Shown: positions 1,498 through 20,261 of the stretch, in pieces
Layout of the letters: every line of letters begins with the position of its first letter
How positions within the stretch are numbered: position 1 is the first letter of the stretch
NCBI GenBank assembly: GCA_032124015.1
Contig: JAQBEH010000022.1
Coordinates: 10,585 to 74,584 of the forward strand
From: Acidobacteriota bacterium
GTDB taxonomy: Bacteria; Acidobacteriota; Polarisedimenticolia; Polarisedimenticolales; DASRJG01
Length of the DNA: 64,000 nt
Reading direction: 5' to 3'
The notes under the pieces: generated by a model
The model's input: only the letters and a program-made list of their open reading frames with translations
The model's database searches: none
Told to the model about the DNA's origin: nothing
Program-made: the position numbers and the translations under genes

Positions 1498-1576
1498 GGG
1501 GCAGAATAAGGGGACAGCAACCGTTTTCCCTGGTGGAAAACGGTTGCTGTCCCCTTATTCTGCCCCCTATTTCTTT
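1488..1576. terminator. 89-nt perfect palindrome (42-bp arms, 5-nt loop CTGGT); candidate bidirectional terminator related to the REP family
   Basis: 1488..1529 is the exact reverse complement of 1535..1576, checked base by base; the first mismatch is 1487/1577. The outer arm ends carry the Lys-Lys-TAG ends of both convergent genes. Confidence 0.8.
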
Positions 1577-4173: not shown

Positions 4174-4256
4174 GGGAAGAGGGGACACTCCCCTTTTTCT
4201 CACAAAGCTCCCCGGACACAGCTTCGATGAGAAAAAGGGGAGTGTCCCCTTTTCCC
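4174..4256. repeat. REPIN-like doublet: two inverted REP copies separated by a 25-nt spacer
   Basis: 4174..4202 (GGGAAGAGGGGACACTCCCCTTTTTCTCA) pairs with 4228..4256 at 28 of 29 positions, with one G-T. Each arm contains the 13-mer core (4181..4193 and 4237..4249). Confidence 0.8.
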
Positions 4257-6826: not shown

Positions 6827-6880
6827 GGATAGGGGACCTGGGGGATAGGGGACACTCCCCTTTTCGGATGTCCTCTATCC
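6827..6880. repeat. REP copy embedded in a nested hairpin
   Basis: Outer inverted repeat GGATAGGGGAC (6827..6837) / GTCCTCTATCC (6870..6880) matches at 10 of 11 positions. It encloses ATAGGGGACACTCCCCTTTT (6845..6864). Confidence 0.75.
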
Positions 6881-9726: not shown

Positions 9727-9730
<4 letters not shown>

Positions 9731-9750
9731 GGGACAGTCCCCTTTTTCTT
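9727..9750. repeat. REP copy, one-mismatch core (GGGGACAGTCCCC)
   Basis: The sequence is ATAGGGGACAGTCCCCTTTTTCTT. The hppA stop TAG (9728..9730) is part of the element. Confidence 0.7.
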
Positions 9751-12197: not shown

Positions 12198-12315
12198 GGA
12201 AACCTCCTAGCGGAAAGCACGATCGAGCCCACGCGGCCGCCACCGTTACTGTACACGGAACGCGACGCGGAACGATCCGGATCGGGCGGGCAGTCGCGGC
12301 TTCGCCGCCGCCAGC

Positions 12316-12328
12316 TATAATCCCCGCA
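12316..12328 (+). promoter_or_regulatory. Perfect -10 box positioned for a leaderless transcript of the ClpX-like gene
   Basis: TATAAT at 12316..12321, then 6 nt, then the A of ATG 12328. No Shine-Dalgarno sequence lies between them. The -35 is weak. Confidence 0.35.
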
Positions 12329-13416
12329 TGAAACCCATCGAGATCAACGACTTCCTCCAGGCCGATGTGATCGGGCAGCAGGAAACCCTAAAATTCGTGG
12401 CGGTCGCCATCTTCAAGCACATCCAGGGGGAGCGGTATGGCAACCTCTTGATGATCGGGAACTCCGGCACCGGCAAGACGACGATCATGCGTTCCATGGA
12501 ACGCTTGTACGAAAAGCACGAGGAGTTCCACGCGAATCGCGTCGTCTGCATCATGAACGCCAATCAGTTCGCGAGCGAAGAGGGAATCGTCGACCCGAAT
12601 CGCCTCCTCGTTCGTCTGGAAGAGCGGGCGCGAGAGATCCTCGGCGAGGATGCCACCGCCGAGCAGATCGGCGACTACATAGAGCGCGCGACCGTCTGCA
12701 TCGACGAGATCGACAAGATCTCGGCGATCGTCGGCGGCAAACCGTACGTCACCGGCATCAACATCCAGCAGGGGCTGCTGACGTTGATCGAGGGCGAGCG
12801 GATTCTCTACCCGGTGACGATCTACAAGAACAAGCAGCTCGAAAAAGCCGCGATCCACATCGATACTGGAAAGATGCTGTTCCTGTGCGCGGGAGCGTTC
12901 GAATCACTCTACGATCAGGTGTACCGGCGGGTGACGTCGCCGACGTCGCGCGTCAAGCTTCCCGCCGAGACCGTTTACGAAAACGGCGAAGTCCAGATCC
13001 GCGAGTACTTCACGCTGCGCCACTGGTTCAAACAAGAAGACCTGTTCGACTACGGCATGCAGCCACAGTTCCTCTCGCGCTTCGACAATTCGATCATTCT
13101 CGAAGACCTGAATGCCGGAACGTTGTCGCGCATTTTCACCGAGCCGAAGGATTCGGTCCTGCGCGCGTCCCAGAATTTTTTCAAGAACTACAATATCGAC
13201 ATCGACGTGACCGACGGCGCCGTGCGCAAGATCGCGGACGAGGCGTCGAAGTCGAGCCGTATCGGGGCGCGTGCGCTGAAGGCCGTCTGGGGAAAGATCA
13301 TCAAGCCGTACGAATTCGACCCGTTCGGACAGACGGACGTCAAAAAAGAAGGCGACCGCCACCGCCTGGTCGTCGACGAAGCGGTCGTGCTACGTGCGCT
13401 GAAGCCGCCGCTTTAG
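12328..13416 (+). CDS. ClpX-like AAA+ ATPase lacking zinc-binding domain and IGF loop
   Basis: Walker A GNSGTGKT, Walker B VCIDEIDK, ClpX-like blocks QQGLLTLIEG, MLFLCAGAF and IGARALK. No N-terminal Cys cluster is present. Spot-counted lines are 48-57% GC against about 67% in the neighbouring gene. Confidence 0.8.
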   Translation: MKPIEINDFLQADVIGQQETLKFVAVAIFKHIQGERYGNLLMIGNSGTGKTTIMRSMERLYEKHEEFHANRVVCIMNANQFASEEGIVDPNRLLVRLEERAREILGEDATAEQIGDYIERATVCIDEIDKISAIVGGKPYVTGINIQQGLLTLIEGERILYPVTIYKNKQLEKAAIHIDTGKMLFLCAGAFESLYDQVYRRVTSPTSRVKLPAETVYENGEVQIREYFTLRHWFKQEDLFDYGMQPQFLSRFDNSIILEDLNAGTLSRIFTEPKDSVLRASQNFFKNYNIDIDVTDGAVRKIADEASKSSRIGARALKAVWGKIIKPYEFDPFGQTDVKKEGDRHRLVVDEAVVLRALKPPL

Positions 13417-17312: not shown

Positions 17313-19358
17313 GGCGCGAAAAAGGGGAGTGTCCCCTTTTCCCCAAACCTGCAGCATCCACGCCACATCGAAGGCGATCTCCTTCAGCGCGTCGTAGCGC
17401 CCCGAGGAACCGCCGTGGCCGGCGGCGAAGTTCACCTTCAACAGGACCTGCGGCGCGCCGTCGTTTCTTTCACGCAAGCGCGCGACGTACTTGGCGGGCT
17501 CCCAGTACATGACTTGGCTGTCGTTGATGGAGGTCTTCACGAGCATTTTCGGGAATGGCTTACGGCCGAGGTTCGAGTACGGGCAATATGAGCGCAGGAT
17601 CGCGAACTGCGCCGGATCGGTCGGATTGCCCCACTCCTCGAACTCGGCGACGGTCAGCGGCAACGATGTATCGAGCATCGTGTTGATGACGTCGACGAAC
17701 GGCACCTTGAGGACCGCGCCACCCGCGACGTCCGGCCGCAGGTTCATAACGGCCCCGATGAGAAGGCCGCCCGCGCTCCCCCCTTCGATGATCAAGCGCT
17801 CCCGCGAAGCGTACGATCCGCGCACGAGGAAGTCAGCCACGGCGATGAAGTCGGTGAACGAGTTCGGCTTGTGCTCCATCCGCCCCGAATCGTGCCAGGG
17901 CTTTCCGAGCTCGCCTCCGCCACGCACGTGCGCCAGGGCGCAGACGGCGCCGCGATCGAGGAGCGACAGCCGGTTCGACGAGAACATCGCGGGGAGCGGA
18001 TAGCCGTACGCGCCGTAACCCACGAGGTGCATCGGCGCCGTGCCGTCCATCGGCGTGTCCTTCCGGTGAGCGAGCGAGACCGGAACGGCCGTTCCGTCGG
18101 GCGCGATCGCTTGAGCGCGCTCCACGGTGTAGAGCGAGGGGTCGTAGCCGCCCAGCACCTCGTTACGCTTCATGAGCGTCTTGGCGCGCGTCGCCATGTC
18201 GTAGTCGTAGATGGACGGTGGCGTGACCATCGACTGGTAACGGAAGCGGAAGATCGACGTCTTGAACTCGGCGTTGATGTCCGGGAAGGTCGAGTACGCC
18301 GGTTCCGGGAAAGAGATCGCGTGGGTTTCGCCCGAGTCCAGCGCGTGCACCACGAAGCGCTCGAGCCCATCCTCGCGCTCGTAGGCGACGAGATGCTCCG
18401 CGAACAACTCGATCCCCGCCAGGTTCACGTCTGTGCGGTGCGGCAGGACCTCCGTCCACGCTTCCTTGGCGATGGCGTCGACGGGGCACCGTGCGAGGCG
18501 GTAGTTGCGTCCGCTATCGTTGGTGCGAATCCAGAAGGTGCTTCCGCCGTGGTCGACCTCGTATTCGAGTTCGGGTGCTCTGGGCAGGAAGATCCGGAAT
18601 GCGCCGTCGGGATCGCTCGCTGCGAGGAAGCGGACCTCGCTGGCCGTGTGGCTGTCGGCGTCCAGGAAGAGGTACCCGAGACTCCGCGAGCGGCGGATCG
18701 CAAGCGAGAATCGCTCATCCGACTCCTCGTGAATGAGGACAGGTTCCGCGTCGCCTCGCCGGTGACGCCAAAGTCGATACGCTCGTTTCGCGTCGTCGTC
18801 GGTAACGTAAAAGAGCGTTTTCCCGTCGGCCGACCATGCGACCGAGCTGACCCTTTCGATCGATTCCGGCCCGTTTTCGGCGCGCCGCAGGTCGCGGACG
18901 TGCAGCGTGTACTCGCGAAACCCGGTCGTGTCCACCGAGTAGGCCAGTAAGCTGCCGTCGTCGCTCACCACGAAGGCGTTCACGGCGAAATAGGCGTGGT
19001 CGCGAGCGAGAGCGTTCAAGTCGAGGACGATTTCTTCGGCCGAGGTGAGCGCGCCGAGCTTGCGCGCGAGGATCGGGTACTGCTTCCCTTCCTCGGTGCG
19101 CGCGTAGTACCAATACAATCCCTTGCGGTAGGGGACCGAGAGGTCGGTCTCTTTGATGCGCGCGAGCATTTCCTTGTACAGGCGCTCTTGAAGGGCGCCG
19201 GTTCCCTGAAGCGCCGCTTCCGCGTGGGCGTTCTCGGCGACGAGGTGCGCCGTGACCCGAGGATCGTCTTTGTCGCGAAGCCAGAAGTAGTCGTCCTCCA
19301 GGGTCTCGCCATGAAGCGTGATCGCATGGGGAATACGCGGAGCGATGGGCGGGTTCAT
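17244..19358 (-). CDS. ptrB: Oligopeptidase B (S9A prolyl oligopeptidase family) with a REP-encoded C-terminal extension
   Basis: N-terminus [19 protein letters not shown], catalytic region GGSAGGLL, and AAGHGG near the end. ATG 19358 is used, because the ORF-track start 19415 runs through a REP. No stop occurs until 17244. Confidence 0.85.
17318..17344. repeat. REP copy (exact core, GTG orientation)
   Basis: The sequence is GAAAAAGGGGAGTGTCCCCTTTTCCCC. It lies just 3' of nth and inside the ptrB reading frame. Confidence 0.8.
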
Positions 19359-19367
19359 CCGACAATA

Positions 19368-19404
19368 ATAGGGGACACAGGGAAAGGGGACACTCCCCTT
19401 TTTC
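19368..19404. repeat. REP copy with ATAGGGGACAC head (left flank of RAYT)
   Basis: The sequence is ATAGGGGACACAGGGAAAGGGGACACTCCCCTTTTTC. It is near-identical to the reverse complement of 20226..20261. Confidence 0.8.
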
Positions 19405-19411
19405 GCGGTGA

Positions 19412-20078
19412 TCAAAAGTGGAAATCTGGTTCGCGGTCAGGGAAGGGCGCGTCCCGCTTCGCCACCCGTGGTCGACCGCGTGGTCTCAGTGTACCCAGCA
19501 GGTTGAGGCGGGTAGCGACGTCCCGCGTCCAGGTCGAGTCGCCCAGGGGCCGGTCGCGTTGAATCGACGTGCGTAGCTCCGAAAGTTCGGCGCCTGTCAG
19601 TGGGGTGTCGACCCAATCGAGCCACGGCGACGGAAGCGGCACCGGCGAGTTTGCCAGCAGTCCACGCGATTGGTCTATGAACTTCCGCTCGCGAACGCTC
19701 GACCATCGCCAGTGGGTAGCACAACGCACAAGGCCGGCCCGCACCGGATTGCGCTCGACATAACGCACGACCGTCAAGAAATGAGCATCAGCCTGGACGG
19801 GAGACGCCCCGTAACGCCCCTGCCAGACGCGGCCCGTTGTCCCGTGACGAACACGATGCCGTTGCACGTGCGTCGTGATGAGCCAGTGCATGAAGCGAGC
19901 GAGGTCCCCGTCCCCGATCGGGCGCACGACCAGATGGACGTGGTTAGGCATGAGACACCAGGCGAGAACATCCAGGCGCACTCTGCTCTTGGCATCGTGC
20001 ATCAGTCGCCCGGGCGTTGCGGCGAGTCACGACATGAGCGCACAAGCCACCGGGTATCGGACGGGAAAACCGAGGCAT
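19412..20078 (-). pseudogene. REP-associated tyrosine transposase (RAYT, IS200/IS605 Y1 family), N-terminally disrupted
   Basis: The main ORF 19412..20002 carries the HUH motif (LMPNHVHLVV) and the Tyr helix (VVRYVERNP). An N-terminal strand remnant MPRFSRPIPGGLCAHVVTRRNARATD starts at 20078 in a different frame. The segment between the two is shorter than in intact family members. Confidence 0.6.
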
Positions 20079-20178
20079 CGTGTCAGAGATGGGGGTGGGG
20101 GAGGACCATCGCCGAGGAAACTAGAACGGATGTCCGTTCCCTGAGGCCTTGCTCGAGCCGTCTCCTGGTTACGCATCC

Positions 20179-20211
20179 GCAACCCACCGCACGCGTCGTG
20201 CGGTGGGTTGC
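20179..20211. repeat. 33-nt palindrome (15-bp stem, 3-nt loop) upstream of the RAYT remnant
   Basis: GCAACCCACCGCACG (20179..20193) and CGTGCGGTGGGTTGC (20197..20211) are exact reverse complements. Confidence 0.7.
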
Positions 20212-20225
20212 GTCGCCGGAGCCTT

Positions 20226-20261
20226 GGAAAAGGGGAGTGTCCCCTTTTTGATGTCCCCTAT
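20226..20261. repeat. REP copy with inverted head (right flank of RAYT)
   Basis: The sequence is GGAAAAGGGGAGTGTCCCCTTTTTGATGTCCCCTAT. The M16 peptidase stop (TAG on the minus strand, 20258..20260) lies in its head. Confidence 0.8.

Follow-up and report, generated by a model that had tools for sequence, protein, structure and literature searches.

REP-associated tyrosine transposases (RAYTs) are single-copy, vertically inherited Y1/HUH enzymes that act as single-strand DNA endonucleases and transposases. They recognise the hairpins of the repetitive extragenic palindromic (REP) sequences flanking their own gene, and they are thought to spread REPs round the chromosome, singly or as inverted doublets (REPINs). 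We describe here a RAYT locus of an Acidobacteriota bacterium, found in a window of 64,000 nucleotides (contig JAQBEH010000022.1 of GenBank assembly GCA_032124015.1, positions 10,585 to 74,584; positions given below are counted from the first letter of this window). The locus is very probably a REP-RAYT unit in which a 41-nt deletion has recently turned the RAYT gene into a pseudogene, leaving its REP family probably orphaned.

The reference system is that of Escherichia coli, with its TnpA-REP/RAYT protein (YafM; PDB entry 4ER8) and its REP/BIME ‘REPtron’. TnpA-REP folds as a four-stranded antiparallel sheet with packed helices (PMC3479197). The Acidobacteriota protein is of the same Y1/HUH fold, and its gene, too, is present in single copy, between inverted REP hairpins that are dispersed in many copies. 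It differs in its sequence (about 22% identity) and in an extra C-terminal extension of about 90 residues (…PLPSPWLDWVD…RPRGRPR), while its REPs form a perfect stem of 8–10 bp with a 3-nt loop and bear no GTAG tag. Furthermore, the window copy is a frameshifted pseudogene. There are precedents for this fate: in Neisseria gonorrhoeae, Pseudomonas chlororaphis and some E. coli, RAYTs have been frameshifted or lost (Bertels and Rainey, 10.1101/2021.07.10.451892), and the likeness lies in a single RAYT inactivated by a population-wide frameshift, with a REP/REPIN family orphaned. In those cases of RAYT loss or frameshift, REPINs are fewer and the share of the master sequence is lower, and the decay of orphaned REPINs is expected to extend over millions of years (10.1101/2021.07.10.451892). 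The present case belongs to Acidobacteriota, not to Proteobacteria, and it looks like an earlier stage: there is no REP decay, the genome having the most master copies and their highest share among its congeners.

Two further systems are worth comparing. In Pseudomonas fluorescens SBW25 (Bertels and Rainey, 2011, PMC3116915), REPINs are inverted REP doublets with a fixed spacing, and such doublets exist here as well (14 of them, 54–56 nt from core to core). Yet only about a quarter of the Acidobacteriota cores belong to doublets, no two of which are identical; most stand alone, and some cap longer palindromes that are particular to their locus. The IS200/IS605 transposases (TnpA of IS608 or ISDra2) have the same HUH and tyrosine core and recognise sub-terminal DNA hairpins, but the Acidobacteriota RAYT, unlike them, is not repeated in the genome and does not travel as a unit with its hairpins: its position on the chromosome has stayed the same through the radiation of a genus.

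A RAYT gene split by a single deletion

An open reading frame (ORF) of 196 codons on the minus strand, at 19412..20002, codes for the segments LMPNHVHLVV and RYVERNPVRAG and for a ...RPRGRPR tail. The initial annotation had read these as the hallmarks of a Y1/HUH transposase, and profile searches bear it out: Pfam Y1_Tnp matches with an E-value of 2.7e-10, over positions 33–121 of 121 only, and NCBIfam REP_Tyr_transpos gives 65.5 bits over positions 39–146 of 146, which, for want of the N-terminus, falls short of its 80-bit cut-off. The product is a RAYT-type Y1/HUH transposase, of which the HUH motif (NHVHLVV), the helix of the catalytic tyrosine (RYVERNPV) and the C-terminal extension (...RPRGRPR...) are all intact. 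About 7,800 database proteins match the RAYT query, and the close ones have 220–238 residues, as have the intact orthologues found in synteny. One of the latter, P0004 (235 residues, 75% identical), matches Y1_Tnp from position 6 to 121 and passes the REP_Tyr_transpos cut-off with 84.9 bits; the window ORF, which begins at an internal methionine, corresponds to its residues 40–235.

The only PDB entry matched by the sequence of P0004 is 4ER8, E. coli TnpA-REP (9e-7). An AlphaFold model of P0004 built from 42 relatives (pLDDT 85.6, pTM 0.81) has strand beta1 at residues 13–20, helix alpha1 at 30–46, beta2 at 49–56 and beta3, with the HUH motif at H60/H62, at 60–67; a long helix, beta4 (104–108) and the tyrosine helix (111–122) follow. 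The columns of H60, H62 and Y120 are invariant among the 42 relatives. With this model, Foldseek returns 4ER8 at the top (E 1.3e-9, TMt 0.71), and IS200/IS605 transposases next. A complete Y1_Tnp domain in one frame, its four-stranded sheet including beta1, is thus what P0004 has and what the window copy lacks. What the window holds is accordingly a pseudogene of the RAYT family and no working member of it, and it should be annotated as such.

When aligned as DNA with the syntenic intact orthologues (loci L007, L012 and L013), the window has a single gap, of 41 nt. The junction lies at 20002..20005 on the minus strand, where …GCGACTG is directly joined to ATGCAC…; residues V26–L39 of P0004 (…VFHTDADYAILMQL…) are gone and the frame is shifted by +1, since 41 nt are 14 codons less one base. 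Read in codons, the window has …CGC AAC GCC CGG GCG ACT G followed by ATG CAC GAT…, where the orthologues have …ACT/ACC GTC TTT CAT/CAC … ATG CAA/CAG CTA/CTC and then, at the far border, GTG/ATG …. On the model of P0004, the deletion takes away the loop that follows beta1 and ten of the 17 residues of alpha1, those at its start. The long ORF begins again at the counterpart of M40, leaving beta1 behind in a 44-residue fragment encoded in the adjacent frame, at 19944..20078 on the minus strand. The first 25 codons of this fragment (20078..20004) are the true N-terminus, MPRFSRPIPGGLCAHVVTRRNARAT, with strand beta1, and the rest is out-of-frame read-through; a protein search finds it as a separate match to residues 1–27 of P0004, with 81% identity. 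The initial annotation had indeed placed the beginning of the N-terminal strand in another frame at 20078. It had also noted a linker some 15–20 residues short: the shortening is real, and its cause is the frameshifting deletion. Its view that the copy is inactivated agrees with this lesion and with the displacement of beta1, while the word ‘degraded’ overstates the damage, which amounts to one lesion in a gene that is otherwise as conserved as its intact orthologues.

How did the deletion arise? At its borders, the orthologous locus L007 has the words ACTG and ACTAG exactly 41 nt apart, which makes slippage between short direct repeats plausible, and this is probably, judging from the sequence, the mechanism at work. 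As for its spread, the 196-residue product differs at one residue from a database protein, P0001, which is encoded on five contigs, each from an independent assembly (four are Logan assemblies, of different runs, and the fifth is a JGI metagenome). These contigs are 99.8–99.9% identical to the window, gapless over 1.0–5.9 kb, and all carry the identical 41-nt deletion, which is therefore real and common in the population; an assembly artefact is rejected on this ground. No near-identical intact allele was found in a search of 5.8 billion protein clusters, where the next match is 78% identical.

It might be asked whether the 196-residue ORF belongs to a naturally shorter subfamily. Among the 120 relatives listed, eight start at the shared internal methionine, and seven proteins (P0019, P0022, P0027, P0039, P0077, P0083 and P0095) have been called from it, with 181–198 residues. 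In the four that were checked (P0039, P0083, P0095 and P0027), the full N-terminus (…PRxSRPxxGxxCAHVVTRGNxRATVFH…) lies upstream in frame, after an ATG, GTG or TTG start, so that the true start is about 39 codons upstream. These four short relatives are start mis-calls, and the shorter subfamily, which the initial annotation had itself named as an observation that would overturn its proposal, is rejected.

A stable site between two peptidase genes

The orthologues P0002, P0004, P0039, P0083, P0095 and P0027 are all located between the genes of an M16 and an S9 peptidase, in the same direction as these, exactly as in the window. This site is held by orthologues that are 46–78% identical, the pattern expected of vertical inheritance at a stable chromosomal position, and the RAYT of these loci likewise stands between inverted REPs. 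Among the congeners, G002, G003, G006, G007 and G009 have RAYT orthologues that match the whole query, with one TGA in the match of G003 and no stop in the others; G002 and G007 have, in addition, a second RAYT paralogue with 57% identity. In G001, G005 and G008 the site is empty, with the M16 and S9 genes directly adjacent and neither RAYT nor REP between them.

In the window, the REP downstream of the RAYT gene (19368..19404, plus strand) reads ATAGGGGACACAGGGAAAGGGGACACTCCCCTTTTTC, that is, ATAGGGGACA followed by 5 nt and the hairpin AAAGGGGA-CAC-TCCCCTTT. It ends 10 nt upstream of the start codon of the S9 peptidase (ATG 19358..19356, minus strand). The upstream copy (20226..20261, minus strand) reads ATAGGGGACATCAAAAAGGGGACACTCCCCTTTTCC in the inverted orientation, and the M16 peptidase gene takes its TAG stop codon (20260..20258) from the ATAGGGGACA motif of this copy; the REPs are thus packed tight against both neighbours. 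The two differ only in the 4–5 nt spacer and in their last bases, which bears out the description in the initial annotation of an ORF bracketed by near-identical inverted elements, and each folds as a stem of 8–11 bp with a 3-nt loop.

Between the upstream REP and the RAYT gene there is also a GC-rich palindrome of 33 nt (20179..20211), unique in the genome. It is conserved at the orthologous loci, with compensatory changes in its stem, and it is found as well at the RAYT-less M16–S9 junction of G005, which assigns it to the M16 gene, not to RAYT. We therefore rejected it as a sub-terminal hairpin of the transposase, being both unique and present where RAYT is absent; it is most likely a terminator-like hairpin associated with the M16 gene, outside the REP/RAYT system.

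In congener G002 (locus L018; G002:C7, about 12243–12940 onward), the RAYT frame runs without a stop through a REP doublet into the ORF of the S9 peptidase, making an open frame of 933 codons, and in P0008 and P0010 the C-terminus of the protein ends inside the REP (…KEKGECPLF…).

A large and well-preserved REP family

The genome of the window (G000) is a draft of 3.97 Mb in 156 contigs, 97% complete. The 19-nt REP core, AAAGGGGACACTCCCCTTT, occurs in it 110 times at two mismatches or fewer, 62 of these exact, and it is contained in the commonest 21-mer of the genome (51 copies). Since 18 REPs are found no more than 300 nt from the end of a contig, 110 is a lower bound, and REP counts in such fragmented metagenome-assembled genomes are approximate. 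One criterion for RAYT genes, framed with 16-mers (Bertels et al., 2017, PMC5581495), is that their extragenic flanks hold words that are abundant genome-wide, and this 19-mer, present in both flanks of the window locus, is such a word. The consensus of 108 copies is GGAAAAGGGGACACTCCCCTTTTTC. In some REP superfamilies a conserved tetranucleotide, GTAG or CGTC, marks the foot of the palindrome (PMC3733652); neither appears in the 108-copy consensus. The motif ATAGGGGACA stands 4–5 nt upstream in a minority of copies (16 of 110), and the variant ATAG-GGGACAGTCCCC has ATAG only.

In the window itself, the core has seven matches at up to two mismatches, compared with none in 100 shuffled sequences. 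Besides the copies flanking RAYT, there is a REPIN-like doublet at 4178..4252, whose two cores, inverted and at a distance of 56 nt, enclose the conserved spacer CAAAGCTCCCCGGA(T/C)AC…, and there are dispersed cores at 6845..6863 (plus strand, one mismatch), at 9727..9745 (plus strand, two mismatches, in the ATAGGGGACAGTCCCCTTT variant that is the master form in congener G006) and at 17321..17339 (minus strand, exact), the last at the 3′ end of an S9 peptidase gene, oligopeptidase B-like. Over the genome, the 14 doublets are convergent and have a conserved spacer in either orientation, as REPINs do, and about 80 cores are singlets.

Across congeners, the REP family tracks the RAYT clade. There are 108 copies in G002, 96 in G003, 76 in G006, 133 in G007 and 81 in G009, all with RAYTs of this clade, and 0–2 in the genomes without it (G001, G004, G005 and G008, with two in G005 and none in G008). 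This co-distribution, together with the inverted flanking REPs and the copy number, supports the proposal of the initial annotation that the arrangement is the canonical REP-RAYT one, linking the dispersed repeats to their likely mobiliser.

Other repeats deserve a mention. In 8–12 of the 108 copies, the REP hairpin forms the tip of a longer, locus-specific palindrome (for example at G000:C3:10914, C142:49440, C142:53901 and C46:8796): flanks that pair perfectly for at least 8 bp past the core, and up to 16, are found in 7% of the copies, whereas a flank-swap control gives about 0.1%. Either REPs may have inserted into the loops of hairpins already there, or the element may be a longer palindromic one bounded by TAGGGGACA. 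A second palindromic family, TAAGGGGACAGCAACCGTTTTCC-N4-6-GGAAAACGGTTGCTGTCCCCTTA, is represented in the window at 1508..1556 and at about 15 loci of the genome (for example G000:C21:21700 and C40:19219). Its stem is some 21 bp long, and 29 half-sites are counted at three mismatches or fewer. It has its AAGGGGACA start in common with the main REP and often has ATAGGGG… flanks. The same RAYT may act on it as another substrate, or the family may be what remains of a second RAYT since lost; two paralogues are present in G002 and G007. Finally, a tandem repeat of an 18-nt unit, GTCGCCCCAGGTTGCGGT, in about 14 copies, is the source of the commonest 25-mers of the genome.

The age of the break

Three lines of evidence bear on the time elapsed since the deletion, and all suggest that it was short. 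On the window branch, a decomposition of pairwise NG86 estimates with L007 and L013 gives dN of about 0.085 and dS of about 0.56, hence an omega of about 0.15, inside the family range of 0.13–0.27. A long neutral phase would have raised omega and is therefore disfavoured. Second, among 85 full-length relatives 55 columns reach at least 95% conservation, and at these the window sequence deviates nowhere but within the deletion. At the 90% threshold it has two substitutions, G20R and a leucine-to-isoleucine change, which is unremarkable, and at the 80% threshold seven, compared with 0–6 in close relatives, including K to G and F to S in WQGRYKAFP. Outside the deletion there is thus no excess that would indicate relaxed constraint at the 95% and 90% thresholds, and a mild one only at 80%.

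The REPs give a third measure. Exact copies of the master make up 62 of the 110 cores here (56%), and 38 of 108 (35%) in G002, 30 of 96 (31%) in G003 and 35 of 81 (43%) in G009, three congeners that have the same REP master and full-length RAYT matches. The comparison of REP diversity, proposed in the initial annotation as a gauge of copy age, therefore finds no decay relative to genomes with intact RAYTs, and suggests that the loss of RAYT is recent.

Alternatives to a recently orphaned family

Several observations pull against the reading that the RAYT is dead and its REPs stranded. The loss of activity is presumed from the missing strand; the HUH and tyrosine motifs are intact, and the frame of 591 nt is still open (though open frames are cheap at 66% GC). 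An undecayed REP population would also be expected from continued mobilisation, and a low omega equally if the truncated ORF were still under selection. Moreover, a gap between the 156 contigs could conceal another RAYT flanked by REPs, with 18 of the 110 REPs near contig ends, the more so as two congeners carry the paralogue mentioned above.

The first alternative built on these points, which we hold to be quite improbable, is that translation from the internal ATG yields a truncated protein of 196 residues to this day and that this protein still works, by binding REPs, as a regulator, or as an enzyme together with the 44-residue peptide, the gene having been remodelled. Consistent with this, the HUH motif, the catalytic tyrosine and the whole C-terminal extension have been kept without any further stop or frameshift, dN/dS along the lineage stands at about 0.15, the REPs have not decayed, and the deletion allele is the sole one in six assemblies. 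Yet this protein would lack one of the four core beta-strands and ten of the 17 residues of alpha1; a product without one strand of its catalytic sheet is, on the structural model, very unlikely to adopt an active nuclease fold. Every other orthologue examined is full length. The low omega, besides, mostly reflects time before the deletion, and three radical changes at well-conserved sites (G20R, and the K to G and F to S changes in WQGRYKAFP) hint at relaxed constraint.

The second, which seems to us just as doubtful, is that the REPs are still mobilised in trans, by another Y1-like gene or by a RAYT paralogue missing from the assembly. A protein search with P0004 retrieves in this genome the two pieces of the window locus (residues 38–232 and 1–27) and one distant gene, G000:C97:11338-12273 (L026 1839..2777). 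It encodes 312 residues, 30% identical to the RAYT clade, with an HUH-like motif HAYCLLPRHYHVLV (RHYHVLV), a tyrosine motif RYIHLNPV and a long C-terminal extension. These motifs, a REP_Tyr_transpos score of 38.5 bits and the high share of the master sequence would favour mobilisation in trans, for which there might be a parallel in P. chlororaphis, where it has been suggested that a non-cognate RAYT maintains REPINs (10.1101/2021.07.10.451892). However, the C97 gene has no Pfam match and no flanking REPs, and it is found as a single-copy orthologue in eight of the ten genomes of the genus, including G005, with its two REPs, and G008, which has none. As the REP family is absent from both, the C97 gene is unlikely to be its mobiliser, and we rejected it as the intact paralogue that the initial annotation had proposed to look for: identity is too low, and there is no co-variation with REPs across the genus. 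The window locus is the sole match to Pfam Y1_Tnp in this 97%-complete draft of 156 contigs, so that RAYT is there in single copy. With no other RAYT of this type in the assembly, the family of about 110 REPs has probably lost its mobiliser, and its members would at present be immobile.

A programmed +1 ribosomal frameshift, fusing the two ORFs into one protein, is hard to credit. The two do overlap by 59 nt (19944..20002), but the fused product would still be without 14 residues of the core, the orthologues are all single-frame, and no slippery motif was noted by eye (no formal scan was made). That the frameshift is an artefact of assembly or sequencing, or that the ORF represents a subfamily of naturally shorter proteins, as the seven relatives called from the same methionine might suggest, is practically discounted by the gap common to five independent assemblies from different projects and by the in-frame N-termini upstream of the four short relatives checked.

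A probable course of events and its meaning

A recently silenced RAYT and a stranded REP family would have come about as follows. In this lineage of Acidobacteriota, the M16 and S9 peptidase genes enclose the fixed site of the RAYT. In the species of the window, slippage between short direct repeats would then have removed 41 nt, with 14 codons lost and the frame shifted, leaving the 44-residue N-terminal fragment and the 196-residue ORF that starts at an internal methionine. Deprived of a strand of its catalytic sheet, the RAYT product would no longer make an active nuclease, and about 110 REPs would have been left without a mobiliser. The break being recent, erosion of the REPs would not yet have begun.

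Frameshift and loss of RAYTs are events already known; what is new here is the phylum and the early stage. A bolder proposition, which we consider unlikely, is that the system has been caught just after the death of its RAYT at the peak of the REP population, which would be the overshoot-then-RAYT-elimination step of the Bertels–Rainey conflict model, or else that the truncated RAYT keeps a REP-directed function. The cases published for that model illustrate its later decay phase only (10.1101/2021.07.10.451892).

With reference to annotation, start mis-calls as described above affect several database orthologues. More generally, a mobiliser can now be assigned to the most abundant short repeat of this genome, and this in Acidobacteriota, from which there are hardly any descriptions of REP-RAYT systems. 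A dead RAYT surrounded by uneroded REPs makes an early-stage complement to the published late-stage cases, and it could help calibrate the rate at which orphaned REP populations decay.

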